Source: Patescibacteria group bacterium (GTDB taxonomy: Bacteria; Patescibacteriota; Patescibacteriia; Magasanikbacterales; GWA2-37-8). From it: DNA of 64,000 bases. A program made the position numbers and the translations under genes. Of this stretch, positions 5,618 to 56,727 are shown one piece after another. The notes below the pieces were generated by a model. It made no database searches. It saw only the letters and a program-made list of their open reading frames with translations, and was not told the origin of the DNA. Where the stretch lies: positions 20,363 through 84,362 of the forward strand of contig JAQWDH010000001.1 in the NCBI GenBank assembly GCA_028705565.1. Reading direction: 5' to 3'. How positions within the stretch are numbered: position 1 is the stretch's first letter; every line of letters begins with the position of its first letter.

Positions 5618-5689
5618 GCAGGTGTAGTATAATGGTTATTATGCGTCCTTGCCAAGGACGAGACGGCGGTTCGATTCCGCTCACCTGCT
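5618..5689 (+). tRNA. tRNA-Gly (anticodon GCC); CCA not encoded
   Basis: Perfect 7-bp acceptor stem GCAGGTG/CACCTGC, anticodon stem CGTCC/GGACG with loop TTGCCAA, T-loop TTCGATT. Confidence 0.75.
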
Positions 5690-5695
5690 CTCAGT

Positions 5696-5830
5696 GTCTG
5701 TTTGTCTGTCAGATGGTCTAGGGTCTACAGTCTATGGTCTGCGGTCAATGGTCTGCGGTCAATGGTCTATGGTCAATAGTCCACTGTCTATAGTCTATAG
5801 TCCATCGTCCAAAATAGTCCATCGTCCAAA
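5696..5830. repeat. Degenerate tandem GTCYAYRG-type repeats (GGTCTATGGTCTGCGGTCAATGG...) between the two tRNAs
   Basis: Read directly; related tracts at 18361-18470 and 36340-36375. Confidence 0.6.
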
Positions 5831-5836
5831 ATACAT

Positions 5837-5909
5837 CGCGGGGTAGAGCAGTTGGCAGCTCGTCAGGCCCATAACCTGAAGGTCGCCGGTTCAAGTCCGG
5901 CCCCCGCAT
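5837..5909 (+). tRNA. Initiator tRNA-fMet (anticodon CAT); C1:A72 mismatch, C33 in the anticodon loop
   Basis: Near-identical to E. coli tRNA-fMet over most of its length (CGCGGGG...GCTCGTCAGGCCCATAACCTGAAGGTCGCCGGTTCAAGTCCGGCCCCCGCA); characteristic 1:72 mismatch. Confidence 0.85.
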
Positions 5910-5918
5910 CAAACATAA

Positions 5919-6197: not shown

Positions 6198-9100
6198 TTA
6201 TCCTCCTTGCGCGGAATTGATTTTTTTCTCAGTCCACGCTTTTGTTTTTATATGAAAAATACCTGTTCCTTTTTTGAGTTTTAGCGGTTTTAAAATTTCT
6301 TCCGCGTATATTTCTTGCAGACGGATAATTGCTTTTTTTGTAAGAGTTCCAAAATATCCGGATATTATTCCTTCGGGATAAATATCTTTGCCCATTGATT
6401 TAAGAAATATTTGCAGATATTTTACATCTTGTCCAACCGCGCCTCTCCACAAAAATCTTTCAAAAGAAAAATTATCCGGAATGCCGAGTGTTGTTTTTAA
6501 AGATGAGGAAACGGTTTGAATCGTTGAAGACGTCAAAATTGTTGAAGAAGCGAGATTGATATCTTTTTCAAGAGTTGACGTGGACAAAGTTGATGTCGTT
6601 GATGTGGCTGAACTTTCCCCGAAAACACCGTAAAGACCGAAATTTTTTGTTTTGGATGTTATTTCATTCGCAAGAGTATTGTCGCTTTTAAGAGGAACCC
6701 ATATTTTTTTTGTTTCGTCCCAACGATAAATTTCCATAGCGTTTTTTTTGATTTTACCGTTCTTTACCAATTCCTCATTGTAAGTAAATGAAAGTTTCAT
6801 TTCGTTGTTAATTTTTTCAATTTCTTTTCCTCCGACAATAGCTTTAATTTCCGAAACAATATCCCCAAGGATATTAAGATTGGTCGGGAGGGGGTGATTT
6901 TTTATAATTTCCATCGGGTCCAAAGTTATAATTTCCAGAACAGCGGTGCCGACAATACTTTGCGGCAGGAATTTTATAACGCCGGTCGCTCCGGATTGAA
7001 ATATTTTTTTCACTTCTCCACCGAGGTTTTCCGTAATGTTGCCAGAACCGGAAGATGATGATGGCGGTATAATGCCTCCACCTCCGCTGATAATCGCGAT
7101 TGTCCATGTTGATGTTGATTGCGTCTTGTTTCCTGCCTTATCCACGGCTTTTACATACCAAGTATGATTGCCGTTTCCGATTTTTGAAGATACGGTTTTT
7201 GAAACGCCGGTAAGATTATCGTCTTTCAAAACATTATCCACATAAAGTTCATAATGGTCAAAATCCGCATCAGACACGGCATTCCATATAAAAGTTGGCT
7301 GTTCATTTCCCAATGTTGAATAATCGCTTGGAGAAGATAATACAAAAGCGGACGGACCTTCGGTGTCTTCGGCCACGGTAAAAGTTTTTGCTGAAAATCC
7401 TCCGTTGTAAGTGAAAGTGATTTTACCGGCGGAGTCGGATTGGTAGGAATTAAAATGAGAACCGTCAACTTTTATTGAATACCATGTATTATTTTTTGAA
7501 ACAGCCACAACATAATCAATCGTGGTCGTGGAAATTGTGCTGGATGCCGTCCATTGGTCGGTATATCCGTTGGAAATGTCGCTGTCATTAAAAGCCAAAG
7601 TGATTTCTCCAATGGAAGGAATAATTTTTATTGTGTTTGTCGCGGCAGTGCCGAGTGTTAAACTTTTTGTGCTGGAAACATTTACAGTAAGAAGATTCGC
7701 CGCTACATTCATCCAATCCCACTCCGAAGTTGGCAAAACATTAAAAGAAGTTGAAAAGCCGCGCGTGGTCAAATCAAAATTTGCGTTGGTGGATGTTGGC
7801 GCGACATTTACAGCGCGAGTGGTGGAAGCGTTGGTTCCGGAAGTGTCACGGAGGTAAACAGTGTATTCATTGCTGCCTTCAGTTAATCCGGAAAATAAAA
7901 TAGACGGATTGCTGTAAACGCTTGCGTTGTAGGAAGCGCGAATCTCATCTTGTGAAAGCGCACGTTTCCAAACTCTTACTTCATCAAGCAAACCCTTGTA
8001 ATAAGCATACGCGTTGGAGCTTGGAACCGCGCCGTTTGTCCATCTGCCTAACTGGCTGTATCCATCATAATAATCGCATATATTTCCGGTTTGACTTACC
8101 GAGTCCTCTAAAATTCCGTTAAAATAAAATTTTATTGTCGTTCCATCGTATGTGACCGCCAAATGATTCCAAGTTGTGGTTGAAATATATGATGTGCTGC
8201 TTACAATCGGCCAGTCGGTGTTGTTCATGCATAATTGCGCCGCGGCTTCGGCGCGTATATCATTTTCGCCCAAGTCGGTGTAATCGGATTTCAAATACAT
8301 TTGGTATTGAGGAAAGTTGGCGATAAATGTGATGTTGTAATCAGAATCCACGGAAGTCGGTTTTATCCACGCTTCCACTGTCAAATCATCTCCTGTCATA
8401 TCAGTGGATGAAGGGCCGGTTAAAGAAACAAAGTCATCAATACCGTCAAAAAGCAAAGCGTTTCCGAATTTTCCTGCCGCCCATTGCGGTAAAGTTGTAT
8501 TCTTATAAATATGAAAACTGTCTCCGGTGGCAAAGCCGGTGAGCGCGGATGCCAAAGTAATGGTTTTATCCGTTTCGCTGGTCGCCGTATAATCGCTGAT
8601 AGTCGTGGTTGAACCATCCGCAGCCCCGGAAGTCGCTTCAAAAATCCAATTGTTATAAAAATCGTTATTTGTGCTGAGAACTATATAAGATGTTTCTTTT
8701 ATAACAGATTCCGTGGTGCCGGCATCGGCAGTGCCGTAATCGCCATAGTCAAATGTTCCTGTATGTCCGGCAATACTATCAGACACGGAAGTTCCGGAAG
8801 TTTCGTCAAATTTCCAATATCCTATCGGTTTGTTATCCCCCCAAGTAATGAACATACTTGAATCACCGGTGGAAGAGATCGTCATATTCAAAAGAGTCCA
8901 ACTTCTGTTGATATATGAACTATTATATTCAGTAGAAGAAGCGAAAGCGATTGACAGGCGAGCCGGCGTGCATAAAGAAGTGTCAACCGATAAACAATCA
9001 TCACGGCATCCGAGCGTTCCGCCCGTGTAGCTATAATCAACGCAAACAGCGTTTCCTGTGTCGTTGTCATCGCACACCTCGCCGGTTTCTTTGACTCCGT

Positions 9101-10862
9101 TTCCGCAATACGCGTCATATTCTGGAGCCGAACCCTCGTCTAAAAAATAGAGAATATAATTTTTCATTTCCGCGCGAATGGTATCCAAATTTTCATTTTT
9201 TAAATCCTTTTCTCTTAATTTACGCACATAATTTTCAGCAGAAACGGTTGATTTTACGCCATCAATTTTTGCTTGGGCGATTAAATTATTTAAAGTGGTT
9301 AAATATTTTACATCATCCACGCCTTCGCGAAATCCTTCCCATTGAACCGTGTCTATAACACCATCCGTTGTCGGGTAAGTAAACGCTCCATCTTTGCGAT
9401 CGACATAATCAAAATCATCCCAAATGTTTCCGTGATATGCTTGATAAGCCCAGTCGGCGGCGCCGTCATAACCGGCCTGCCAAAGCATCAATCCGTAATT
9501 TCTGCGGTATTTTTCAGGTCTTTCCTCGCCGCCTTGAGGGTCTGCGTAAGAATATATTTTATTGCCATAGCTGTGGTATGTTGCCGCAAGATCTGGACGC
9601 AACACGCCATAAACTATCGCTATATCTAAAATATCAGCGGCTCTTTCAGCCATTGAATAATTTGCTTGCGCGTCAATAACTTTTCCGCCGACATCGTGCA
9701 CGGCTTCAATTTGCGCGCGAGTGGTAGTGCTAATTTCCTGCTCATCATACCCGTAACAATAAACATCAACATCTCCGTTAAGAGTCGTAGTCGCGATATT
9801 TATTGTGCTTGTAACCGCGGCTTGCGTTAGCGCGTTGGTGGCATATCCGGCCAAACTGCATCCAACATAAAAAAGCGTAGTAGTGTCCATACCGACTGAA
9901 TTGGCGATTGTAAGCGCGTCGTCAAGACTTCCGTCATTAGGCGCGGCTTGATATTGCGCATAATATAAAGGAGCTGTAATACCATGATTGTATAAATTTT
10001 GCAGCTCAGCGGTGAATTGAGCAGTATTTTTCCAATCTCCTGAAATCTCGCTGTATCCGCTGACATGGAGTCTGCTTGCGTAATAAAAAGAATAAGTTAG
10101 CGACGGCGAGTCCAAAGTAATCGGCAACACCGTAAGATTAAAAGTAAGATTTTTTGTGAAGACATCGGATGTAAGCTGAATTTGTCCGTTGTAAGTCCCG
10201 GCGGTTGTGGTGGTCGGCACTTCCACCGTAATCCAAATTTGTTTATTCGTGTTTGCTGTAATATCAATCGGTTGAAGTTCGGATGTATCTTCAATATGAA
10301 ATTCCGATGGAAGCATGTGCCACTGGTCCGCGACGCCTGAAATGCCGCTTGCGTTGCTTATTAAAACATAGGAGCCGTCCACCAAAGCGTAGTTTTGCGA
10401 ATCTTCAGTTTTAATCAAGTCGTCATTTTTGACAAGCAGTTCCGGCGTCAAATGTTTGTTGGAAACATCATAAAGAGTATATCCTGTTTGATACCAAATT
10501 TTTACAACTCTGATGTCCAAACTGCTTGAGGCAATCGTGCCGTTGTCTCCAATCAAATCAGTTGAAGTGACATTTAAACCTGTAATGGTTTCATTCGCGT
10601 GAATAACAAAAGTTGCGGGTTCAAATTCGCCAGGAGCCGCGCTCATGGTAATCGTGTCGGAAATATATTCGCTTGAAATACTTGAATCAGCGAGTATTTT
10701 TGTGTCCGTTATGGTTGAAGGAACGTAAATTGTCGCTGAACTGGAAGAGGCGAAAATAATATTGTAAAAAAAAGCGGACAAAGGCAAACAGACGATTGAT
10801 ACAAAAAAAATCGATAAAAATCTAAAAATTTTAGAGCGTCTTTTACGTTCTATAAAAATCAT
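6198..10862 (-). CDS. Giant (1554 aa) secreted/cell-surface protein with a glycoside-hydrolase-like region, LamG/concanavalin-like domain, Ig/FN3-like repeats and a C-terminal peptidoglycan-binding (PG_binding_1-like) domain
   Basis: N-terminal TM/signal. LamG-like motif ...GKFGNALLFDGIDDFVSLTG...DDLTVEAWIKP. C-terminal LWRGAVGQDVKYLQIFLKSMG...GYFGTLTKKAIIRLQ matches the PG-binding pattern. Confidence 0.55.
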   Translation of the reverse strand: MIFIERKRRSKIFRFLSIFFVSIVCLPLSAFFYNIIFASSSSATIYVPSTITDTKILADSSISSEYISDTITMSAAPGEFEPATFVIHANETITGLNVTSTDLIGDNGTIASSSLDIRVVKIWYQTGYTLYDVSNKHLTPELLVKNDDLIKTEDSQNYALVDGSYVLISNASGISGVADQWHMLPSEFHIEDTSELQPIDITANTNKQIWITVEVPTTTTAGTYNGQIQLTSDVFTKNLTFNLTVLPITLDSPSLTYSFYYASRLHVSGYSEISGDWKNTAQFTAELQNLYNHGITAPLYYAQYQAAPNDGSLDDALTIANSVGMDTTTLFYVGCSLAGYATNALTQAAVTSTINIATTTLNGDVDVYCYGYDEQEISTTTRAQIEAVHDVGGKVIDAQANYSMAERAADILDIAIVYGVLRPDLAATYHSYGNKIYSYADPQGGEERPEKYRRNYGLMLWQAGYDGAADWAYQAYHGNIWDDFDYVDRKDGAFTYPTTDGVIDTVQWEGFREGVDDVKYLTTLNNLIAQAKIDGVKSTVSAENYVRKLREKDLKNENLDTIRAEMKNYILYFLDEGSAPEYDAYCGNGVKETGEVCDDNDTGNAVCVDYSYTGGTLGCRDDCLSVDTSLCTPARLSIAFASSTEYNSSYINRSWTLLNMTISSTGDSSMFITWGDNKPIGYWKFDETSGTSVSDSIAGHTGTFDYGDYGTADAGTTESVIKETSYIVLSTNNDFYNNWIFEATSGAADGSTTTISDYTATSETDKTITLASALTGFATGDSFHIYKNTTLPQWAAGKFGNALLFDGIDDFVSLTGPSSTDMTGDDLTVEAWIKPTSVDSDYNITFIANFPQYQMYLKSDYTDLGENDIRAEAAAQLCMNNTDWPIVSSTSYISTTTWNHLAVTYDGTTIKFYFNGILEDSVSQTGNICDYYDGYSQLGRWTNGAVPSSNAYAYYKGLLDEVRVWKRALSQDEIRASYNASVYSNPSILFSGLTEGSNEYTVYLRDTSGTNASTTRAVNVAPTSTNANFDLTTRGFSTSFNVLPTSEWDWMNVAANLLTVNVSSTKSLTLGTAATNTIKIIPSIGEITLAFNDSDISNGYTDQWTASSTISTTTIDYVVAVSKNNTWYSIKVDGSHFNSYQSDSAGKITFTYNGGFSAKTFTVAEDTEGPSAFVLSSPSDYSTLGNEQPTFIWNAVSDADFDHYELYVDNVLKDDNLTGVSKTVSSKIGNGNHTWYVKAVDKAGNKTQSTSTWTIAIISGGGGIIPPSSSSGSGNITENLGGEVKKIFQSGATGVIKFLPQSIVGTAVLEIITLDPMEIIKNHPLPTNLNILGDIVSEIKAIVGGKEIEKINNEMKLSFTYNEELVKNGKIKKNAMEIYRWDETKKIWVPLKSDNTLANEITSKTKNFGLYGVFGESSATSTTSTLSTSTLEKDINLASSTILTSSTIQTVSSSLKTTLGIPDNFSFERFLWRGAVGQDVKYLQIFLKSMGKDIYPEGIISGYFGTLTKKAIIRLQEIYAEEILKPLKLKKGTGIFHIKTKAWTEKKINSAQGG

Positions 10863-13431: not shown

Positions 13432-13488
13432 AAAATAAATCCCAAATCCCCTGCCTACCGGTTTACATACCGTAGGTATGCAGGCAGG

Positions 13489-13580
13489 CAATGACCAATG
13501 ACCAATGACCAATGACCAATGACCAATGACCAATGACCAATGACCAATGACCAATGACCAATGACCAATGACCAATGACC
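13489..13580. repeat. Tandem heptanucleotide repeat (CAATGAC/GTCATTG) x ~13 at the 5' end of the flippase gene
   Basis: Read directly; in frame with the flippase ORF as (VIGHWSL)n. Confidence 0.9.
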
Positions 13581-17197: not shown

Positions 17198-18241
17198 TTA
17201 CAGCAAGGTATTTTTCGGCTGTTCGCACCCCAAATGTTTATACGCCGCTGGCGTGGCTTTTCGTCCTCGCGCGGTGCGTTCCAAAAATCCAAGCTGAATC
17301 AAAAACGGTTCATAAACGGTTTCAATTGTTTCCATTTCTTCGGAGATGGCGGCGGAAAGAGTGTTTAAGCCGGCCGGTCCGCCGTTGAATTTTTCAATTA
17401 AAGTTTTAAGCAAATGGCGGTCAATTTCATCCAAGCCGTATCCGTCTATTGTAAGCATTTTCAGCGCCTCTGACGCGGTGTCGGTATTTATCAAACCGTT
17501 GTTTTTGATTTGCGCGTAATCGCGAACTCTTTTTAAAAGGCGATTGGCGACGCGCGGAGTTCGGCGCGAGCTTTTAGCTATCATCCGGCGCGCGTCTTCA
17601 GCGGACTCAACTTCCAACAATAGCGCGTTGCGTTCCAAAATTTTTTCTATTTCGTTTTCTTCGTAAAAATTCAAATGAAAATGAAAACCGAAACGGTCGC
17701 GCAAAGGAGCTGACAGCAAGCTTAATTTTGTGGTGGCGCCGATTAAAGTAAAACGCGGAAGCGGAATGCGAATCACGCGCGCGGCAGGTCCGGCTCCGAT
17801 GATAATATCCAAAGCGTAATCTTCCAAAGCCGGATACAAAACTTCCTCAATGGTTTTGTTGAGGCGATGTATTTCATCTATAAAAAGAACCTCGCCTTCC
17901 TGCATGTTGGAAAGTATGGCGGCAAGGTCGCCGACTTTTTCCAAAGCCGGACCGGAAGTCATTTTGATTTTACTTTCCATTTCTTTGGCGATGATGTGGG
18001 CGAGCGTGGTTTTGCCAAGCCCGGGATTGCCGCAAAGCAAAACATGCTCCAACGACTCTTGCCTTTTTTTGGCGGCCTGGATGGCGATGCTCAGATTTTC
18101 TTTGATTTGATTTTGCCCAACGAAATCAGACAGCTGGCGCGGACGCAAAGTATTTTCCAAAAGCGTTTCTTCGGCGTTCTCCCCATCTATTTGCGGCTCC
18201 ACTATTCGGTCGGGGCATTCATTTTGTAATTCTTCTTCCAT
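17198..18241 (-). CDS. ruvB: Holliday junction branch-migration DNA helicase RuvB
   Basis: Walker [12 protein letters not shown], sensor motifs, typical length; strong family match over the full length. Confidence 0.93.
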
Positions 18242-18263: not shown

Positions 18264-18330
18264 TGTCATTCCCGTGAAAACGGGAATCTGTTGTCTGATT
18301 GTATGGATTCCCGTTTTCACGGGAATGACA
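18264..18330. repeat. MITE-like element TGTCATTCCCGTGAAAACGGGAATC ... GGATTCCCGTTTTCACGGGAATGACA
   Basis: Perfect ~25-bp inverted arms, each itself palindromic. Confidence 0.7.
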
Positions 18331-18360
18331 GTTAATATGGTTATTATAATTCCAAAAACG

Positions 18361-18470
18361 AACAAAGTCCACTGCTTGTTACGGTCTATGGACTATGGTC
18401 TGCGGACTATGGTCTATGGTCTATAGTCTATGGTCCAACGTCCAACGTCCACAGTCCACGTCCGATTTCC
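18361..18470. repeat. Degenerate GTCYAYGG / GTCCAACGTCCA tandem repeat tract
   Basis: Read directly; same family as 5696-5830. Confidence 0.6.
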
Positions 18471-18641: not shown

Positions 18642-20753
18642 ATGATGGTCAAAAAAGAAAAAAAACACATCAAAACCGTGGAAAAAAGAAACGGTGGTTT
18701 GGATAAATTCAATCCGAAAAAAATTTATGACGCGATTTTTAAAGTGCTCACGGCAACTGACGCCGGCGACAGCAAGCTTTCGCGCAAACTTACGCGCGAA
18801 GTCGTGTCTTTGTTAAACCGTCGTTTTAAAAAGAAAGAATCACCGAAGATTGAAGACATACAAGATACTGTGGAAGAAGTTTTGATGCTGAATGATTTGT
18901 TGGATTCCGCGAAGGCGTATATTATTTATCGCGAACAGCATCGCAATATGCGCGAAGCCAAAGTCGCGACAGACGAAGCCATTGATTTGGTCGGGCAGTA
19001 TATCGGCGAGTTGAGTTGGGATGTGAAAGAGAACAGCAACATGACATATTCTTTGCAGGGTTTGAATCATTACGTTTCTTCTTATGTGGTAAAAAAATAT
19101 TGGCTGAATAAAATTTATCCTCCGGAGATTCGCAAGGCCGGACAGGACGGAGATTTTCATTTGCATAATTTGGATATTCTCGGCACATATTGTTGCGGAT
19201 GGGATTTATATGATTTGCTCGCGCGCGGTTTCGGAGGCGTGTCAGGAAAACTTCAATCCAAACCGGCGAGCCATTTGCGTCCGGCTCTTGGACAAGTTGT
19301 AAATTTTTTCTATACCTTGCAAGGAGAATCGGCAGGGGCGCAGGCGCTTTCAAATTTTGATACTTTGCTCGCTCCTTTTATCCGTTATGACAACTTATCT
19401 TACAAAGAAGTAAAACAGGCGTTGCAGGAATTTCTTTTCAATTGCAATGTGCCGACCAGAGTCGGTTTTCAAACGCCGTTCACCAACATTACTTTGGATT
19501 TGAACGTGCCGGGGCATTTGAAAAATTTGCCGGTGCTTAAAAGCGGAAAACCGCAGAAAGAAACATACGGAGAATTTCAAAAAGAAATGGATATTTTGAA
19601 TAAGGCGTTGGCCGAAGTTTATTTGGAAGGAGACGCGGCCGGTCGCGTATTCACTTTTCCGATTCCGACAATAAATATCGGCAAGGATTTTGAATGGGAT
19701 AATCCTAATTATAACGGTATTTGGGAAATGACTGCTAAATACGGCATTCCATATTTCGCCAATTTTATCCATTCTGAAATGAAGCCGGAAGACGCGCGCA
19801 GTATGTGCTGTCGTTTGCGTCTGGATAATCGCGAACTTTATAAACGCGGCGGAGGACTTTTTGGCGCGGCTCCGCTTACGGGCAGTATCGGAGTTGTTAC
19901 GGTTAACTTGCCTCGCATAGGTTATTTGTCAAAAACAAAAAGGGATTTTTTCAACCGTTTGACAAAAATTATGGATTTGGCGAAAGAGTCGCTGGAAATT
20001 AAAAGAAAAATTTTGGAGAATTTTGTTGAAAAAGGACTTTATCCTTATTCCAATTATTATCTCGCCAACGCCAAAAAACAAAGAGGAGTATTTTGGGGCA
20101 ATCATTTTTCCACAATCGGACTTATCGGAATGAATGAGGCGCTTTTGAATTTTTTGGGGAAAGACATCTCCACGAAAGAGGGGGTGATGTTCGCTTCGGA
20201 GGTTTTGGATTTTATGCGCGACCGATTGGTAAAATATCAAAAAGAAACAGGCAGTCTTTATAATTTGGAAGCGACTCCCGCTGAAGGCACTTCGTATCGT
20301 TTGGCTTTGAAAGATAAACAAAAGTATAAAGATATAATCACGTCCGGCGAAGCAGAACCGTTTTACACAAATTCAACGCAATTGCCGGTTGATTTTACAG
20401 AAGATTTGTTCGCGGCTTTAAAATTACAGGATGATTTGCAAGTAAAATATACCGGCGGAACCGTGTTTCACGCTTTCATCGGAGAAAAATTGGTTGACAC
20501 GAATTCCGTAAAAAGTTTAGTGAGGAAAGTTTTTGAAAAATTCCGTTTGCCTTATTTTACTTTAACTCCGACTTTCAGCGTTTGTCCCGTGCACGGATAT
20601 ATCGCAGGCGAACATCATAATTGTCCGTTGTGTCCGAACGCCCAGCCGTGTGAAGTGTATTCACGCATCGTCGGTTATATTCGTCCCGTAAGCCAGTGGC
20701 ATAGGGGCAAGCAGGAAGAATTTAAGATGAGAAAAACATTCGCGCCGTGTTGA
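18642..20753 (+). CDS. nrdD: Anaerobic ribonucleoside-triphosphate reductase (class III RNR)
   Basis: N-terminal ATP-cone, C-terminal Cys4 zinc ribbon and glycyl-radical motif RIVGY; followed by the activase. Confidence 0.9.
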   Translation: MMVKKEKKHIKTVEKRNGGLDKFNPKKIYDAIFKVLTATDAGDSKLSRKLTREVVSLLNRRFKKKESPKIEDIQDTVEEVLMLNDLLDSAKAYIIYREQHRNMREAKVATDEAIDLVGQYIGELSWDVKENSNMTYSLQGLNHYVSSYVVKKYWLNKIYPPEIRKAGQDGDFHLHNLDILGTYCCGWDLYDLLARGFGGVSGKLQSKPASHLRPALGQVVNFFYTLQGESAGAQALSNFDTLLAPFIRYDNLSYKEVKQALQEFLFNCNVPTRVGFQTPFTNITLDLNVPGHLKNLPVLKSGKPQKETYGEFQKEMDILNKALAEVYLEGDAAGRVFTFPIPTINIGKDFEWDNPNYNGIWEMTAKYGIPYFANFIHSEMKPEDARSMCCRLRLDNRELYKRGGGLFGAAPLTGSIGVVTVNLPRIGYLSKTKRDFFNRLTKIMDLAKESLEIKRKILENFVEKGLYPYSNYYLANAKKQRGVFWGNHFSTIGLIGMNEALLNFLGKDISTKEGVMFASEVLDFMRDRLVKYQKETGSLYNLEATPAEGTSYRLALKDKQKYKDIITSGEAEPFYTNSTQLPVDFTEDLFAALKLQDDLQVKYTGGTVFHAFIGEKLVDTNSVKSLVRKVFEKFRLPYFTLTPTFSVCPVHGYIAGEHHNCPLCPNAQPCEVYSRIVGYIRPVSQWHRGKQEEFKMRKTFAPC

Positions 20754-30641: not shown

Positions 30642-30672
30642 ATTGTAGGCAGTGGACGGTGGACGGTTGGCG

Positions 30673-30714
30673 ATGAATTATGAATTATGAATTATGAATA
30701 ATGAATTACGAATG
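30673..30714. repeat. Tandem heptanucleotide (ATGAATT) x ~6 spanning the start codon of the first pilin-like gene
   Basis: atgaatt atgaatt atgaatt atgaata atgaatt acgaatg, read directly. Confidence 0.85.
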
Positions 30715-36260: not shown

Positions 36261-36382
36261 GAAATTTGTTTAAAACAAAACATACCAAATATAATAATAC
36301 ATTTTGGCGAAAAAATCAAGGGAGTGGTATAATAAACGGATGATGGACGGGCGGACTATGGACTATGGACTGTAGACGATGC

Positions 36383-36396
36383 TGTCATCCCGAATG
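36383..36396. repeat. Fragment of a TGTCATCCCGAATG element, preceded by a GGACTATGG repeat tract (36340-36375)
   Basis: Read directly. Confidence 0.4.
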
Positions 36397-36484
36397 CAGC
36401 AGTAGTCCTTTTTTCAATTTCAAAATCCTAATTTCAAATTTCCAATAAAGCCAAAAATTCAAATGTCAAAAAATAATTTGAAGT

Positions 36485-36826
36485 ATGTTTAAAAAATTTT
36501 TATTAATTTTATCGGTTGGTATTTTGATTTGCGTTCCGGCGTTCGCGCGCGATTATGGTTTGCAAGAAACCGGCTCTGTCGCGGAATATTCGCAATCTTC
36601 CGTTTATAAATCTGCCAACAGCATTGTGTCGGTGTTTTTGTCGATTTTGGCGATTTTATTTTTAGGTCTGATGCTGTATTCGGGAATTCGCTGGATGACG
36701 GCGCACGGCAATGAGGAAATGTTGACCAAAGCCAAAAATATAATGGAAGCCGCGATAATCGGATTGATTATAGTAGTGGCGTCTTACGCAATTTCAAATT
36801 TTATTCTTGAACGCCTTATACAATAG
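36485..36826 (+). CDS. VirB2/TrbC-like pilin paralogue 8 (separated from the array by the UgtP-like gene and tRNAs)
   Basis: ...FLSILAILFLGLMLYSGIRWMTAHGNEEMLTKAKNIMEAAIIGLIIVVASYAISNFI. Confidence 0.55.
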   Translation: MFKKFLLILSVGILICVPAFARDYGLQETGSVAEYSQSSVYKSANSIVSVFLSILAILFLGLMLYSGIRWMTAHGNEEMLTKAKNIMEAAIIGLIIVVASYAISNFILERLIQ

Positions 36827-36858
36827 ACAATAGTCCGCAGGCCAATTAACCCGCCACC

Positions 36859-36892
36859 GGACAGAGATCCCTCTCTGCCGTTCGGGATGACA
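36859..36892. repeat. Right arm of a MITE-like element (GGACAGAGATCCCTCTCTGCCGTTCGGGATGACA)
   Basis: Matches positions 11-43. Confidence 0.6.
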
Positions 36893-37032
36893 GTATCGTC
36901 CACCGTCCACCGTATTGACATTTTTTGGGAATAGGAGTAATATTGAGGTGTTTAATAATTCCGCGTTATTTATAAGCGGGACCGAACTGTTAGGAAACAT
37001 GCTCTTAACGAGCTCGGTTAACAAAAGCATGT

Positions 37033-45925: not shown

Positions 45926-46488
45926 ATCTCTCTTGTCATAAAAATCTCTCTTTTTAGGAGAGCCAAGTCCAAAATAAAATCGCGAAAGCAAGTTTGGACC
46001 TCTGGGTAAAGTCCTTAACGGACGCTTTAATATCAAATAAAAAATGTTACAGATATTAAATATTTACTTAGAGTGTTCAAGCGGCTGACGCCATACTTTT
46101 GGCGAATAGTTTTGAAGGCCGCTGTCAAGCGGTTCTTTATTTTTTAAAAATGATTTTGAACGGAGCAAAAAATTTTCGCGAATGAAAATTTTTTGCCTCG
46201 TTCAAAACGATTGAAAAGAATTGAGCGGGTGTAAGAACTTTGACAATCAATTAGTAAGTTTCAACAAAAAGGGTAGAACTCCCGCGCTGATTTTATTCGC
46301 GCGGGAAAAATAAGAAAGCACAATTTAGTGTTTTCGTAGTATGCAATTTTAACAAGAGCGCATGGCGGATGCCTTGACACCAAAAGACGATGAAGGACGC
46401 TGCAGGGTGCGATAAGCCTCGGAGAGGTCCCAAGCAACCTTTGACCCGGGGATTTCCAAATGGGGAAACCCGCCGGTGCGTAGCACCG

Positions 46489-46600
46489 GAATTTACCAAT
46501 TTACAATTTTCAATTTACAATCAACTCCAATTATCAATAATTTATTGAAAATTGCCGCATTGTAAATTTATTGAAAATAATTGAAAATTCCAGTGTTATG
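46489..46600 (+). other. 23S intervening sequence 1 (AT-rich CAATTT-repeat hairpin in the E. coli helix ~130-150 region)
   Basis: Insertion relative to conserved flanks GGGGAAACCC ... CTGAATACATAGG. Confidence 0.55.
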
Positions 46601-47154
46601 CATCGGCACTGTACACTGAATACATAGGTGTATGGAGAAGACCTGGCGAAGTGAAACATCTCAGTAGCCAGAGGAAAATAAATCTATAGAGATTCCCTTA
46701 GTAGTGGCGAGCGAAAAGGGAAAAGCTTAAACCATATAAGTGTTTCTTTGAGAATGATTGGTCTTAGGATTAGTCTAGTATTAAAGATTAAAGGGATAGG
46801 TCGTTGCTTATATGGGGTTGTAAGATATTGGCGCTGACTGCCTACTCAGTCAGATGATTGAATAACCTTCCTAGTAGAATGCTCTGGAAAGAGCAACCAT
46901 AGAGGGTGATAGTCCCGTACGCGAAAGGAGTTACAAAATCATAGCCGTTATTCTTGAGTAGGACGGAACTCGTGAAATTCCGTCCGAAGCCGGGCCGACT
47001 ATGGTCCAAAGCTAAATACTTTTGGTGATCGATAGTGGACAAGTACCACGAGGGAAAGGTGAAAAGCAGCCCGGAGAGGGCGATGAAATAGTATCTGAAA
47101 CCGTGCGTTTACAAAGAGCGGAAGGTCAACCACATCTCGCTTTGTTTGATGTGG

Positions 47155-47215
47155 AATTTCCAATTTCCAATTTATTTAGTTATTGATTTTTGGAGTTTGG
47201 TAATTCTTACACGTC
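47155..47215 (+). other. 23S intervening sequence 2 (GGAATTTCCAATTTCCAATTT... at the helix-25 region)
   Basis: Insertion at a classical IVS site; same motif family. Confidence 0.5.
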
Positions 47216-47757
47216 AAATGAAGTGAGATGTGGCGACCGACCGTGTTCCTATTGAAGAATGAGCCTGCGAGTGTATGTGTGCCGCTTTGCTTAAGGGCCT
47301 ATGGTCCGGAGGCGTAGCGAAAGCGAGTCTTAACGGGCGTATACCTTGTATCTTTATGGTGCGAGGTTTGTGGCACGTATATAACCCGAAACCGGGTGAG
47401 CTATCCATGACCAGGATGAACCCCGCCGAAAGGCGGGGGGAGGTCCGAACCCACGCGCCGTGCAACACGCGGGGATGAGTTGTGGATGGGAGAGAAATTC
47501 TAATCGAACTCGGTGATAGCTGGTTCTCCTCGAAATAGCTGTAGGGCTAGCCTCAAATGTTTCTATCGGTGGTAGAGCACTGGATGAAAATCGGGTCCTT
47601 CGGGATACCATTTTCAATCAAACTCCGAATACCGGTAGCCAAAATTTGGGAGTCAGACAGTGACGGCTAAGCGCCATTGTCAAAAGGGAAACAGCCCAGA
47701 TCGCAAGCTAAGGCCCCTAAATCCATGTTAAGTGTAACAAAGGTGGTTCTAGTTCTC

Positions 47758-47794
<37 letters not shown>

Positions 47795-47924
47795 TAAAGA
47801 AAGCGTAACAGCTCACTGGTCAAGAGTTTTAGCGCCGAAAATGTACGGGACTCAAACATGGTGCCGAAGCTGCGGACTATCCGTGCTTCACTAATGTTCA
47901 GCACAAATTTTCAAGTATCCTGCC

Positions 47925-48045
47925 TACCGGCAGGTAATTATCAATTTTCAATCAATTATCCAATTATCAATTTTTAAATTTCATTTTGGGTCATTAAAAT
48001 TTATTGAAAATTGTAAATTGTAAATTTTGTGGCGAGCGTTAGCGA
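47925..48045 (+). other. 23S intervening sequence 3 (helix-45 region, ~E. coli 1170)
   Basis: AT-rich CAATTATC/CAATTTT repeat hairpin between conserved blocks. Confidence 0.5.
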
Positions 48046-48552
48046 GGCACGGGTATTGGTAGAGGAGCGTTCCTAACTGCGCAGAAGTCCTAGGCGTGAG
48101 CCGGGATGGAGTGTTAGGAAGCGAGAATGCAGGCATAAGTAGCAAAAAGGCAGGTGAGAATCCTGCCCGCCGAAAACCCAAGGTTTCCTGGGCAACGAGA
48201 ATCGACCCAGGGTTAGCCGATCCTAAGGCCAGCCCGTCGCAAGGCGGGGTAACCGATGGAAGAGCTGGTTAATATTCCAGCGCTATATGCAGTTTGGTTT
48301 TTACTGCGCATCTTTAATTTTTAAGCGTGTTTTGGTTATACGCGCGCCGCAAGGCGGAGACAAAGCCCTCGGGTGGAGTCAACTTAAAATAACAAGGTGC
48401 CTAGAAAAGGTAAAAATCGTTAAGCTGCATGTAATCGTACCGTAAACCGACACAGGTGGGTAAGTCGAGTAGACTAAGGCGTATGAGAGAACCCTCGTTA
48501 AGGAACTCTGCAATACAGCGGCCGTAACTTCGGGATAAGGCCTGTCCGACCG

Positions 48553-48692
48553 TGCCTCACTGCGTTTGACGCGGAATGACCAATATAATTTTCAATTACC
48601 AATTTTCAATTTAAGAGTCCGACCGAGTCGGACACAATAGTTGATCATTGGAAATTGGAATTTGGAAATTCCGCCCGAGCATAGCGAGGTGC
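48553..48692 (+). other. 23S intervening sequence 4, a ~140-bp element (copy A)
   Basis: CCTCACTGCGTTTGACGCGGAATGACCAAT...GTCCGACCGAGTCGGAC...GGAAATTCCGCCCGAGCATAGCGAGGTGCGG. Confidence 0.6.
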
Positions 48693-48817
48693 GGTTGGAT
48701 TACAACAAAAGACCTCAAGCGACTGTTTACCAAAAACACAGCTCCCTGCAAAAGCGTAAGCTGAAGTATAGGGGGTGATGCCTGGCCAGTGTCAGAACGT
48801 TAAAGAGAGAGGTGAGC

Positions 48818-48957
48818 CGTACCTCACTGCGTTTGGTACGGAATGACCAATTTTCAATTACCAATTTTCAATTTAAGAGTCCGGTCGAGCCGGACACAAT
48901 AATTGATCATTGGAAATTGGAATTTGGAAATTCCGCCCGAGCATAGCGAGGTGCGGC
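48818..48957 (+). other. 23S intervening sequence 5, a near-identical second copy (copy B) of the 140-bp element in a different helix
   Basis: About 95% identical to copy A; separated by genuine 23S sequence (GACTGTTTACCAAAAACACAG). Confidence 0.6.
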
Positions 48958-49569
48958 GTAGCCTTGAACTGAAGCGCTGATGAACGCCGGCGGTAACTAT
49001 AACCGTCCTAAGGTAGCGCAATTCCTTGTCGGGTGAGTTCCGACGCGCATGAATGGTATAACGATTTGAGGACTGTCTCAACGAGGGACTCAGTGAAATT
49101 GCAAGGAAGGTGAAGATGCCTTCTACCCGCAACTAGACGAAAAGACCCCGTGAAGCTTTACTACAACTTGGCATTGGTATAAGGTTAAATATGTTCAGAG
49201 TAGGTGGAATCCCGACTTAGTCGGGAGACAATGAGACACCACCCTTACTTAATTTTATGCCTAATCTTCCGACTTGAATCAGCCGGAGGAGACAGTGTCT
49301 GGTGGGTAGTTTAACTGGGGCGGTTGCCTCCTAAAATGTAACGGAGGCGTTTACAAAGGTCAGCTTAGCTCGGATGGAAATCGAGCTGGACGTGCAAACG
49401 CAAAAGCTGGCTTTACTGCAAGGGCTACAACCCGAGCAGTCGCGAAAGCGGAAGTTAGTGAACCGACCATCCTATATAGGAAGGTGGAAGATCAACGGAT
49501 AAAAGCTACTCCGGGGATAACAGGCTGATCTAGCCCGATAGTCCACATAGACGGCTAGGTTTGGCACCT

Positions 49570-50420
49570 TAATACATCGGGGTGCTGCAGTAGTGATACT
49601 GCACCAAAAATTCGGCTTATAACGGTGAACCCGTCATTAAATGTATGGTATAATTAAAATAATAATCCATTTAATCGGCAACACCGTGGGAAGTCTTAAT
49701 CAAACACAAAAATCAATACTTATCGGAAGTCTCTTGGGAGATGGAAATTTGAGATTGGCAGAAGGAAAAACAAATGCTTTGTTTGAAGTAAATCATTCAA
49801 TCAAACAAAAATTGTATGTTGATTGGAAATATAATCAATTACGCCCATTCATTTTAACGGCTCCGAAAGCGAGAAGTTGTAATGGAAAACGAATTGCTTA
49901 TCGGTTTACGACACGCAGTTTGCCTGTATTTACTTCGCTCTACAGGGAATTCTACAGGGATAGTATAAAAGTAATTCCTTGTAATCTCACATTGACACCA
50001 TTAGCGCTCGCGGTATGGTTTATGGACGATGGCAGTAAAAGCCGTTCATCTATTTATCTAAACACGCAGCAATTCAACATTGAAGAACAAATTCGTTTGC
50101 TTCAATTATTGAAAAAGCAATTTAACTTGTCAGGCGCGCTAAATAAGGACAAGAAGTATTTTCGTATAAGAATAACATCGTCAAGCACAGCGCTATTTAA
50201 AGAAATAGTGCGGCCGTATGTTATAAAAATTTTTAATTATAAACTTGATTAATGACCCCGTAACGACTGACCCGAAAGGGGAGGTTCCGACCTTTTATGT
50301 CGGAACAACACGCCGACGCTTGTTTTACAAAAACCGAGATTATGCCGTTTAAGTCGGCTACGATCCGGAACAAGCAGAAGATATAGTCTACCCCATGAGA
50401 AATCATGGAATAATCGACAG
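49570..50420 (+). mobile_element. Group-I-type intron in the 23S rRNA (inserted after GGCACCT, near E. coli position ~2449) encoding a LAGLIDADG homing endonuclease
   Basis: Exon sequence GGCACCT | ... | CGATGTCGGCTCATC is interrupted by 851 bp containing the ORF; intron ends in G. Confidence 0.75.
49641..50252 (+). CDS. LAGLIDADG-family homing endonuclease (intron-encoded)
   Basis: Two LAGLIDADG-like motifs ([11 protein letters not shown] and [10 protein letters not shown]). Confidence 0.75.
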
Positions 50421-50467
<47 letters not shown>

Positions 50468-50480
50468 TGGCTGTTCGCCA

Positions 50481-50532
<52 letters not shown>

Positions 50533-50906
50533 CTATCTGTTGCGGGCGTTGAACATTGAGAAGACTCACTCCTAGTACGAGAGGACCGGAGCGGACGAAC
50601 CTCTAGTGTACCAGTTGTCCTACCAAGGGCATTGCTGGGTAGCTACGTTCGGCACGGATAAACGCTGAAAGCATCTAAGCGTGAAGCCGTCTTCAAGATT
50701 AATGTTCGTCATAGACTCCTTGTAGACTACAAGGTTGATAGGCGCTATGTGTAAGTTTAGTAATAAACTGAGCAGAGGCGTACTAATAAGTCAAGCATAC
50801 TACGAAAGCGCTAAGCGGTGCTTTTTGCACCCTTTTAAGTCCGCCCTGTCTGCCGACAGGCAGGCTTTGGCGGAAAGCCATTATAAAACAAAATTGAGTA
50901 TGAAGT

Positions 50907-50961
<55 letters not shown>

Positions 50962-51022
50962 CCCGCCAGAGGCGGGTCCGCCTTTGGCGGAAAGCCATTA
51001 TAAAACAAAATTGAGTATGAAG

Positions 51023-51132
<110 letters not shown>

Positions 51133-55357: not shown

Positions 55358-55847
55358 TATGTTAATCAAAATACTTATTGCCGGAGACGGCGGACAGGGA
55401 GTGCAAACAATTTCAGACATAATTTGCCAGGCCGCGTTTGAGAACGGTTTTTTTGTAAATCATATTCCAAATTACGGATTGGAACAACGCGGTGGAGTTT
55501 CTTTGTCTTACATTACAATCGGTGATAAAGAAATCACATACCCAAAATTTTCAATGCCGGATATTTTGGTTGTATTGTCAAAGCAAGCTGATAACAGAAC
55601 AAAACAATATCAAAAAGAAAGCGTGAAGATGCTGAATATCGAAGATTATAAAAAAGATTTGGAAAAACAATCGGTAAAGCCGCAAAATTATAACATTTTC
55701 TTTTTGGGTTTATTGGCAAAAATTTTGGTTGAGAAAAAAATTTGCGGAGAAGATTGTGTTTTAAAATTATTGGAAAAAAAATTCGGTAAAAAAGAAAATT
55801 GGGAAGAAAAGAAAAATGTATTTGAATTAAGTTTAAATTATGTCTGA
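55347..55847 (+). CDS. 2-oxoacid:ferredoxin oxidoreductase gamma subunit
   Basis: ILIAGDGGQGVQTISDII N-terminus typical of gamma subunits. Confidence 0.6.
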   Translation: MSFDMLIKILIAGDGGQGVQTISDIICQAAFENGFFVNHIPNYGLEQRGGVSLSYITIGDKEITYPKFSMPDILVVLSKQADNRTKQYQKESVKMLNIEDYKKDLEKQSVKPQNYNIFFLGLLAKILVEKKICGEDCVLKLLEKKFGKKENWEEKKNVFELSLNYV

Positions 55848-56727
55848 TTTAACAATTTTGACAACGCGCGCGGAAAACGATTACGAGCTTTTGGACAGCG
55901 GAGAAAACGAAAAATTGGAACGATATGGAAAATATGTTTTATCCCGTCCGGACCCGCAGGCGTTATGGCCGAAAATGTTAAAAAAAGAAGCGTGGCAAAA
56001 AGCAGACGCTGTTTTTTCGCATGAAAGCAAAGGCGGTTTTTGGAAATTAAAACTCGGTGTGCCGGAGAAATGGAAAATTGAGTTTGGCGGTTTGAAATTT
56101 TGGATTCGGCCGACTGTTTTTAAACATACGGGTTTATTTCCGGAGCAGGCGAGTAATTGGGACTGGATTTATAAACTAATCCATAGTCAAAAGTCCATAG
56201 TCAGCAGACATATCAACATACTTAATTTATTCGGCTACACAGGCGGAGCCACGCTCGCGGCGGCGAGAGCCGGCGCCGATGTATGTCATGTTGACGGTTC
56301 TAAAACAGCTATCGGTTGGGCGAGAGAAAATGCCGAATTATCAGGGTTGGCAGACAAACCGATTCGTTGGATTTTGGATGACGCCGCGACTTTTGTTCGC
56401 CGAGAAATAAAGCGCGAAAAAAAATATGACGGAATTATTATGGACCCGCCCGCCTTTGGGCACGGACCAAACAAAGAGATGTGGAAAATAGAAGAGAATT
56501 TTTTGAATTTGTTGGAGTTGTGCGAACAAATTTTATCCGATGAGCCGTTGTTTTTTCTTATCAACGGTTATGCTTCCGGATATTCGTCCATCGCGTATGA
56601 AAATAATTTATTGGCGTTGAAAAAGAAATACGGCGGAGAGATTGAAAAAGGGGAATTAACTATCGCGGAATCAAAAGGCGAGCGGCTGTTGCCTTGTGGT
56701 ATTTTCGCTCGGTGGAGTAAATCGTGA
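55840..56727 (+). CDS. Class I SAM-dependent (r)RNA methyltransferase, RlmI/YccW-like
   Basis: LNLFGYTGGATLAAARAGADVCHVDGS SAM-binding motif; ...IMDPPAFG catalytic motif. Confidence 0.55.
   Translation: MSDLTILTTRAENDYELLDSGENEKLERYGKYVLSRPDPQALWPKMLKKEAWQKADAVFSHESKGGFWKLKLGVPEKWKIEFGGLKFWIRPTVFKHTGLFPEQASNWDWIYKLIHSQKSIVSRHINILNLFGYTGGATLAAARAGADVCHVDGSKTAIGWARENAELSGLADKPIRWILDDAATFVRREIKREKKYDGIIMDPPAFGHGPNKEMWKIEENFLNLLELCEQILSDEPLFFLINGYASGYSSIAYENNLLALKKKYGGEIEKGELTIAESKGERLLPCGIFARWSKS

Follow-up and report, generated by a model that had tools for sequence, protein, structure and literature searches.

Period-7 tandem tracts that recur along a 64,000-nucleotide stretch of the genome of a Patescibacteria group bacterium (GTDB Magasanikbacterales, GWA2-37-8; assembly GCA_028705565.1, contig JAQWDH010000001.1, forward-strand positions 20,363 to 84,362) are most likely copies of one lineage-restricted heptanucleotide satellite family, a satellite DNA that is filtered only for tolerability. 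This stretch, hereafter the window, is C36:20363-84362 of the source genome, labelled G000 (931 kb, 39% GC, 38 contigs); other G-numbers denote the genomes with which it was compared, and the family set comprised 100 genomes from 41 genera. The tracts are direct repeats phased on GTC or GAC (GWC, where W is A or T) and are found in the spacer between a tRNA-Gly and a tRNA-Met gene, upstream of ruvB, around the pilin genes and, in frame, inside a methyltransferase gene.

A GTC-phased heptamer family

The genome-wide tandem-repeat scan proposed in the original prediction demonstrated that this class of tract recurs across the genome. Runs of at least four GWC-N4 units occurred 19 times in the 931-kb genome in comparison to 0.0 in ten Markov-2 shuffles, while GWC runs of at least four units at periods 4–6 and 8–12 numbered only 0–2. 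Among Tandem Repeats Finder (TRF) arrays of at least five copies, period 7 led with 24 and any other period reached at most 10; period-7 autocorrelated segments numbered 18 versus 3.0. Outside long open reading frames (ORFs), 24 GWC arrays were counted in the 931 kb.

These counts bear directly on whether the tracts are a chance likeness of low-complexity sequence or an assembly artefact. Some low-score TRF rows are AT-rich noise, and three-unit GWC runs are expected approximately eight times by chance, but the excess of runs of at least four units over the 0.0 expected is confined to period 7, and assemblies made independently from three other samples contain these same arrays. Chance or artefact is refuted for the long tracts, and as a general account we give it practically no probability.

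The unit itself was characterized from 68 units of TRF-defined degenerate arrays that were chosen without regard to GWC. G was found in 97% of units at position 1, T or A in 99% at position 2, C in 96% at position 3 and A in 84% at position 5, with positions 4 and 7 free, and the family unit can be written as G-W-C-H-R-Y-N (e.g. GTCTATG, GTCCATA, GTCCAAC and GTCCACC). Departure from the within-array consensus was 3–12% at positions 1–3 in comparison to 35–44% at positions 4 and 7 (positional heterogeneity chi-square p = 5e-9, a value that is indicative only, as the units are non-independent). A (CATTGGA)x8 array on another contig of the same genome reads GTCCAAT in phase, and within the window GGACGGTGGAC with at most one mismatch occurred 7 times versus 0.43 expected. 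The genome also possesses a second, AT-rich heptamer class with an AAT/ATT core, for which the five-unit AATT pattern was too strict, G000 itself scoring 0. The motif statistics, together with the methyltransferase linkers of G019 and G068 described below, bear out the earlier proposal that the recurrent tracts, including the in-frame copy, form one family.

All tracts listed in the original prediction are present in the sequence, and two arrays are added here, namely the perfect (CAATGAC)x13 array, which had been left unlinked to the GTC tracts, and the remnant array at the pilin-8 stop codon, which had been overlooked. The arrays of the window and their neighbouring features are as follows:

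5618-5690: tRNA-Gly
5691-5836, plus strand: spacer between tRNA-Gly(GCC) and tRNA-Met(CAT), 146 nt, nearly all GTC-phased heptamers, 13 units from 5716
5837-5910: tRNA-Met
13489-13580: perfect (CAATGAC)x13 array, equal to GACCAAT in GWC phase and of the same unit class
18265-18333: TGTCAT...ATGACA hairpin-repeat dimer, two ATTCCC-N8-GGGAAT hairpins, next to the ruvB start
18367-18463, plus strand: degenerate array, GGTCTAT/GGACTAT mixed x7.6, then GTCCAAC/GTCCACA x4.6 (TRF 18383-18463)
30645-30670, plus strand: (GGACGGT)x2.3 at the start of the first pilin gene (TRF 30652-30667)
36340-36378, plus strand: array GGACTAT GGACTAT GGACTGT AGACGAT between tRNA-Arg (minus) and pilin-8 (plus) (TRF 36353-36371, GGACTAT x2.7)
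36381-36405, plus strand: half hairpin repeat that starts TGTCATCCCGA, separated by 2 nt from the 36340-36378 array
36826-36858, plus strand: remnant array ACAATAG ACAATAG TCCGCAG GCCAATT, beginning at the pilin-8 stop codon
36859-36896, plus strand: half hairpin repeat ending GGGATGACAG, between two arrays
36897-36915, plus strand: (GTCCACC)x2.4, reverse complement of the 30645 tract (TRF 36897-36913)
55840-56727: PF10672 methyltransferase ORF, 295 aa
56180-56214, plus strand: in-frame GTCAAAA GTCCATA GTCAGCA GACATAT in the methyltransferase gene, encoding HSQKSIVSRH (TRF 56180-56202)

The tRNA spacer tract (5713-5833) is composed of heptamers such as GGTCTAT, GGTCAAT and AGTCCAC (TRF period 7, 12.9 copies, 5713-5802), after which TRF reported a 17-nt unit repeated 2.2 times at 5797-5833. 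The tract at 18361-18470 had been placed after ruvB; it lies upstream of this gene, in the gap that separates the divergent ruvB and nrdD genes, because RuvB is encoded on the minus strand (17198-18241) and nrdD on the plus strand (18642-20753). An AT-class heptamer array (ATGAATT x5.9, 30673-30713) abuts the (GGACGGT) tract at the first pilin gene, and the (GTCCACC) array at 36897-36915 directly abuts a promoter-like TTGACA-N17-TAATAT before rpsO (37033).

Array orientation divided 13 to 5 with respect to GC skew and 12 to 6 with respect to gene strand, neither being significant, and distances to start codons ranged from 9 to >500 nt. With head-to-tail units, an excess over composition and unit-step length differences between strains, the tracts have the properties of heptanucleotide simple-sequence repeats (SSRs). 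Three other assignments were rejected: TACGAAA repeats have a period of 8–9 nt and are unrelated to this family, CsrA-type GGA sites are missing from the GGTCTAT arrays, and a restriction-site reading of GAC-N4-GTC was also discarded. An Rfam scan of the window returned tRNA and rRNA matches only.

Two further observations concern the surroundings of these arrays. The exact 11-mer GGACGGTGGAC has 2 copies in the 931-kb genome (window 30654-30664 and 36898-36908), which are inverted and bracket all eight pilin genes. A GC-rich hairpin of ~50 nt (C36:33805-33854, window ~13443-13492) stands directly upstream of (CAATGAC)x13; it has ~18 copies in the genome, several of which (e.g. on C29, C7 and C5) adjoin, by position, heptamer arrays of quite different units.

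Strain variation, distribution and in-frame copies

Near-identical strain contigs from three other samples were found by exact-protein look-up, and at 3/3 comparable loci the strains differed inside the arrays, mostly in 7-nt register. In the tRNA spacer, the JGI strain was shorter by precisely two units (14 nt) plus another 3 nt and carried four substitutions, none of them in GTC, while one ENA contig terminated within this array. Upstream of pilin-8 the unit number was equal in two other strains (L041 and L042), where GGTCTAT GGACAGC replaced the GGACTAT GGACTAT of the window within ~250 nt of identical flank. Downstream of pilin-8 the array of the other strain was ~7 units (~49 nt) longer than the window remnant at 36826-36858, the hairpin repeat at 36859-36896 was doubled, and the array after it possessed 11 units in comparison to 2 in the window (~63 nt) with the promoter unchanged.

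The earlier suggestion that the tracts are recombination or insertion hot-spots can be judged from these loci. As hot-spots they hold up, with all three comparable loci varying by whole units between strains and with a doubled hairpin repeat and an inserted repeat block at the pilin-8 flanks; in other genera the methyltransferase linker has hairpin repeats in frame. The nature of the event requires qualification, since the changes are mostly in 7-nt register, which points to slippage or unequal exchange rather than to insertion of foreign DNA.

Comparison at the remaining loci was limited by the available contigs. For the 18361-18470 array, an exact RuvB protein look-up returned no strain contig, look-ups of two small ORFs near ruvB returned only a same-sample contig that ended short of the array, and a scan of one metagenome with RuvB yielded only relatives of at most 71% identity, with two GWCx4 runs in 516 kb and none at this site. 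The exact methyltransferase protein had no other record, and neighbouring contigs were too short for a comparison of the linker.

The strain contigs also revealed larger differences. Directly before the pilin-8 ATG, L041 and L042 possess ~125 nt that are missing from the window (36470-36490); this block consists of AATTGAA-type heptamers and half a hairpin repeat and replaces the would-be ribosome-binding-site region. A target-site-duplication footprint was considered and rejected, as no duplication was found at the polymorphic insertion and elements of the repetitive extragenic palindromic (REP) type make none. In another near-identical strain (L043, JGI 3300029288), the 4.7-kb gene at 6198-10862, encoding a 1554-aa LamG/GH123-like, peptidoglycan-binding surface protein, is missing; an 82-aa gene is followed there by the TGTCATCCCGAGG hairpin repeat and then by an AI-2E transporter gene.

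Across the family set, GWC arrays of at least 5 units were present in 16/100 genomes and 10/41 genera. Pattern positions were most numerous in G000 (46), followed by G019 (15) and G113 (10), and a control pattern was near zero. The units in other genomes (GTCCGAA, GTCCAAA, GTCAAAA, GTCTGTA and GTCCGTA) share the same core. MutL_C (PF08676) was detected in 0/100 family genomes in comparison to 11/14 control genomes in the same search, so the whole family appears to lack canonical mismatch repair. The missing MutL is permissive for repeat instability without explaining the patchiness of the arrays.

The original prediction had called for an alignment of the methyltransferase with its orthologues, and this placed HSQKSIVS in a linker of variable length, between a conserved NWxW helix and the LNLFGYTGG motif, before the S-adenosylmethionine (SAM)-binding motif. 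Among 23 orthologues the linker had 0 to ~40 extra residues, with G000 5–6 residues above the shortest. The same linker in G019, a member of another genus, reads GTCGAAA GTCAAAA GTCCATA, and in G068 (L188) it contains GTC units and a small palindrome. Two genomes from two genera, G013 (L021) and G020 (L015), carry a TGTCAT hairpin repeat in frame at this position, and G016 (L022) a GC-rich palindrome. Counted by genus, GTC units thus occur at this linker in two genera besides that of G000, and palindromic insertions in three more. On this sequence comparison the methyltransferase copy is classed as a true family member and its linker as a hot-spot in several lineages, rather than as a private insertion of G000, because the linkers of other genomes carry GTC units or palindromes of their own. 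The methyltransferase tree was poorly resolved on whether G000 and G019 are sister lineages.

In-frame arrays were also found in other conserved enzymes. In G000, the linker of LigA possesses (GGACTTT)x4.4, which encodes QSPKSKVQSP between conserved blocks at a linker length identical to that of 24 orthologues; an Elp3-like protein has (GTCAAAA)x4 between its radical-SAM and GNAT domains, and in IleRS three units lie between the catalytic domain and that for anticodon binding. In G019, 12/13 long-array loci lie inside conserved genes, and 11 conserved genes have in-frame arrays at loops, some being clear insertions of 14–30 residues and some replacing sequence at constant length. G085, G103, G104 and G113 likewise carry in-frame copies. 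Several sites recur across genera: arrays are shared at the IleRS linker by G000, G019 and G103, at the Elp3-like linker by G000 and G113, and at a loop of Fmt by G019 and G104. The encoded peptides vary with the unit and the reading frame.

The tRNA-Gly/Met spacer is another recurrent site. GTC or GAC heptamer arrays occupy it in G000, G019, G104 and G113, the last three with an inverted-array hairpin, and a hairpin not built of heptamers occupies this position in G103, while the spacers of G017 and G085 are only ~10–17 nt. The arrays of the window are direct repeats that fold weakly better than shuffles (DNA z = -1.8; spacer RNA z = -2.9).

Heptamers were also observed at the rRNA genes of the window. 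The 23S rRNA match (46342-50806) spans 4465 nt against a 2925-nt model, indicating that this gene has large insertions, in which AT-rich heptamer arrays abound. A pair of near-identical hairpins in the insertions (48575-48685 and 48835-48945) has stems of inverted heptamer arrays with a GC-rich tip (z = -4.0 and -7.2). Further downstream, a perfect 117-nt x1.8 tandem duplication (50865-51078) overlaps the start of the 5S rRNA gene (51025-51131).

Origin and maintenance of the arrays

We consider it on balance probable that slipped-strand mispairing or unequal exchange makes and turns over the arrays and that selection merely removes harmful ones. Comparison of otherwise identical strains showed gain, loss and exchange of whole units and of 14-nt double units in the arrays; the underlying mechanism would be slippage or unequal exchange between units, in a family in which MutL was not detected. 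Arrays were observed to persist where extra or changeable sequence is harmless: in the tRNA-Gly/Met spacer, upstream of promoters and downstream of stop codons, at the flanks of TGTCAT hairpins, and in inter-domain linkers when they are stop-free and in frame, as in the methyltransferase copy. The arrays most likely have no dedicated function, and effects on neighbouring genes would be side effects.

The relationship of the arrays to the TGTCAT hairpin repeats is relevant to how they arise. The tracts had been described as lying beside TGTCAT elements, which applies to three tracts of the window, found 2–34 nt from a repeat end, although genome-wide enrichment varied with the definition used. 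The dimer at 18265-18333, for example, ends 34 nt from the 18367 array, and this array reads GTC outward. When repeat ends were defined by a terminus regular expression, 6/24 intergenic arrays lay within 100 nt of an outward-facing end in comparison to 4.7% of random intergenic sites; when repeats were defined by BLAST and all period-7 arrays were included, the proportions were 4/35 versus 10%, with no enrichment. Nine distinct junctions from G000, its sister strain L041, G085 and G113 showed GTC outward in 8 cases and GAC in 0, with 1 tie, and at five junctions the array starts 2–5 nt beyond ATGACA. Genomes with arrays had a median of 48 TCGSRATGACA ends in comparison to 6 in the others (p = 7e-4, uncorrected for kinship and with many exceptions). 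The arrays of the window are not themselves members of REP or miniature inverted-repeat transposable element (MITE) classes, being direct repeats with no conserved-terminus palindrome; they are neighbours of such repeats.

Hairpin repeats of a comparable kind are nuclease targets in Neisseria, where Ssn binds the hairpin as single-stranded DNA (ssDNA) and cuts upstream of it by a few nucleotides, within the variable flank (PMC11893778). G000 encodes small single-domain GIY-YIG ORFs of Ssn size (81–101 aa), three complete and one partial (C32:3942-4154, C29:6123-6347, C9:7809-8015 and C5:22-150), three of which exceed the Pfam cut-off; NCBIfam and PDB searches returned no specific name for them. 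Next to the copy on C29 is a 39-nt tandem repeat interrupted by an assembly gap. We regard the relationship of the arrays to the hairpin repeats and to such nucleases as a lead and not as a demonstration.

Several observations weigh against slippage or unequal exchange as a complete account. Neither the invariance of GTC beside free positions 4 and 7 nor the occurrence of one unit class in 10 genera would be expected from neutral slippage alone, and the same holds for the fixed GTC-outward polarity at hairpin-repeat ends (8/9 junctions, 1 tie) and for the reuse of one tRNA spacer and of particular protein linkers in different genera. A one-unit change in the perfect 4–5-unit arrays of LigA (G000) and IleRS (G019) would frameshift essential genes, and the length-neutral replacement of linker sequence by some arrays is awkward for a stepwise process. 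Loss of MutL is also not sufficient, because 100/100 family genomes lack it and yet in 84 no long array is present. Three features, namely the constancy of GTC, the polarity next to hairpins and the repeated use of sites, argue for an additional, sequence-directed process.

Such a process could be nicking of one specific strand beside the TGTCAT (ATTCCC-N8-GGGAAT) hairpin repeats; this nicking would seed or drive the arrays. The nick would be made by a small Ssn-type GIY-YIG ssDNA nuclease or by a different nickase directed to GTC, a short stretch would be copied again during repair synthesis, and arrays would spread with the hairpin elements and outlive them. The five junctions starting 2–5 nt beyond ATGACA, GTC facing outward at 8/9 junctions and the greater number of TCGSRATGACA ends in array-positive genomes are consistent with this, as are the cut of Neisseria Ssn in the variable flank of its hairpin (PMC11893778), the three small GIY-YIG ORFs of G000 (candidates for Ssn membership only), the joint expansion of a hairpin repeat and its flanking arrays in one strain, and the array-armed hairpins in G019 genes and 23S rRNA insertions. 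Yet for 17/24 intergenic arrays, that of the tRNA spacer among them, no such repeat lies 100 nt away or closer; the sequence next to most repeat ends is simply AT-rich, and no enrichment of all period-7 arrays was seen with the BLAST-defined repeat set. Moreover, G056, G097 and G114 are rich in repeats and lack arrays, whereas G085 and G086 have arrays and few repeats; the comparison of genome counts is uncorrected for kinship, and the GIY-YIG ORFs are no more than putative Ssn members. An origin by nicking is rather unlikely on this record. The near-invariance of GTC while other positions drift could alternatively reflect function, with selection maintaining the arrays as multimeric sites at which a DNA- or RNA-binding protein would recognize GTC at 7-base intervals (a spacing of three units per two helical turns) or as processing hairpins when in inverted pairs. 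The presence of one unit class in 10 genera can be read in this way, as can the tRNA-Gly/Met spacer arrays of four genera, the inverted-array hairpins of G019, G104 and G113 with the non-heptamer hairpin of G103, the folding of the spacer RNA (z = -2.9) and the array-armed hairpins of the 23S rRNA insertions (z = -4 to -7). Near-identical strains nevertheless differ in copy number and in the units present, 84/100 relatives have no long arrays, and G017 and G085 manage with spacers of ~10–17 nt; arrays also occur in both orientations to transcription and inside coding sequence, their distance to promoters and start codons is inconsistent, and no candidate binding protein was identified. A maintained function is accordingly judged unlikely.

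The variable length of the arrays would also be expected of contingency (phase-variation) switches for pilin-8, nrdD, ruvB and the methyltransferase; some arrays have surface-protein genes as neighbours, a repeat block immediately precedes the pilin-8 ATG in one strain, and a one-unit change in the methyltransferase copy would shift the reading frame. The placement of the tracts argues otherwise, since the intergenic ones occupy a tRNA spacer, precede a -35 element or follow a stop codon: no intergenic array of the window falls between -35 and -10 or in a start region, the array at 36897 ends before the -35, and the promoter is unaltered where this array numbers 11 units instead of 2. In the tRNA spacer there is no ORF that the array could switch, and the only in-ORF tract among those listed in the window is the methyltransferase copy, whose units are degenerate. 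The same repeats occur in the essential LigA and IleRS, where an off state would be lethal, and no frameshifted variant was found among the few strain contigs. Phase variation is thus a very improbable role for these arrays, and turnover by slippage or unequal exchange, with removal of harmful copies, remains the preferred account.

Known repeat systems and significance

Literature searches yielded no paper on heptamer repeats in Patescibacteria, and the GTC arrays were compared with repeat systems from other bacteria. According to the summary of Mrazek et al. 2007 in PMC4679880, heptanucleotides are the commonest long SSRs in many prokaryotes. In the same paper, close Cyanothece strains differ by 7-nt indels. 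Long SSRs are described there as longer than expected by chance, with units of 5–11 nt and a sporadic phylogeny, and slippage has been proposed for their origin, with 7 nt possibly arising from polymerase contacts (PMC4679880). All four features, namely excess, unit size, patchiness and a proposed origin by slippage, resemble those of the GTC arrays. As far as that summary extends, candidate phyla radiation (CPR) bacteria fall outside the coverage of the survey, and it reports no shared core trinucleotide, no in-frame arrays in housekeeping genes and no reuse of sites across genera.

The short tandemly repeated repetitive (STRR) elements of heterocyst-forming cyanobacteria resemble the GTC arrays in their 7-bp unit, few types and many dispersed, mostly intergenic loci, with copies also in a functional gene. 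Their units include CCCCAGT, TTGGTCA and CAACAGT. Read on the opposite strand and rotated, the G000 unit CAATGAC becomes TTGGTCA, which may be a coincidence. STRR heptamers can form hairpins in inverted pairs (PMC2670836), and the title of Vioque 1997, as cited in PMC2858038, places an STRR inside the gene for RNase P RNA. The GTC arrays belong to another phylum and have other units, a GWC-phased motif and in-frame translation inside conserved enzymes; dispersed heptamer loci were found (24 intergenic, one motif GWCHRYN) in the absence of the specific units and host. The GTC arrays work like STRR sequences but are not members of that class.

The TAACTGA repeats of marine Beggiatoaceae, some Cyanobacteria and Bacteroidetes (MacGregor 2015, PMC4679880) are also alike in their many intergenic loci, patchy distribution, 7-nt-step indels and occasional ORF copies. 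In that family one invariable unit lies immediately upstream of start codons, with ORF copies at protein ends, in comparison to the GTC arrays, which do not have the TAACTGA unit, are degenerate around GTC, show no association with start codons and occupy internal linkers of essential enzymes.

Rickettsia palindromic elements (RPEs) are tolerated in frame at permissive spots of unrelated housekeeping genes (PMC10969869). In this respect the GTC arrays are similar, with in-frame copies in unrelated conserved genes (the methyltransferase, LigA, Elp3-like and IleRS genes of G000 and 11 genes of G019), and further likeness is seen in the composite array-hairpin-array units in frame in G019 and in the TGTCAT repeats of other genera's methyltransferase linkers. 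RPEs are palindromic, about 100–150 bp in length and encode a conserved peptide, whereas the window copy is 28–35 nt of direct heptamers, and no transposition signature was seen at it (no terminal repeats and no target duplication). The NTS/dRS3-type repeats cut by Ssn (Chenal et al. 2025, PMC11893778) correspond instead to the neighbouring TGTCAT hairpins, and the flank in which Ssn cuts is where several arrays begin; the heptamer arrays are not hairpins and not the Ssn recognition sequence, and no link between Ssn and tandem repeats is reported.

Should the heptamers prove to be the footprint of a sequence-directed process, for example a hairpin-guided or GTC-directed ssDNA nick (by an Ssn-type GIY-YIG nuclease or similar) with short re-copying, which we regard as improbable, then nicking and re-copying would set the 7-base unit and the GTC core and would build arrays outward from the ends of TGTCAT hairpins. 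Array-armed hairpins would then colonise the same protein linkers and tRNA spacers across genera, as a self-propagating repeat class that rewrites flexible parts of essential proteins.

Bacterial lineages with heptanucleotide repeats each employ only few unit types. This CPR family represents an unusually clean case, combining a small genome, no MutL found, an invariant GTC core and strain-variable arrays with a polarity that is fixed next to hairpins of a known nuclease-associated class and with the reuse of a tRNA spacer and essential-enzyme linkers across genera. The combination makes testable the origin of the arrays, their selfishness and the extent to which they reshape protein linkers. 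In practical terms, the arrays break assemblies and would serve as strain markers for uncultured Patescibacteria.

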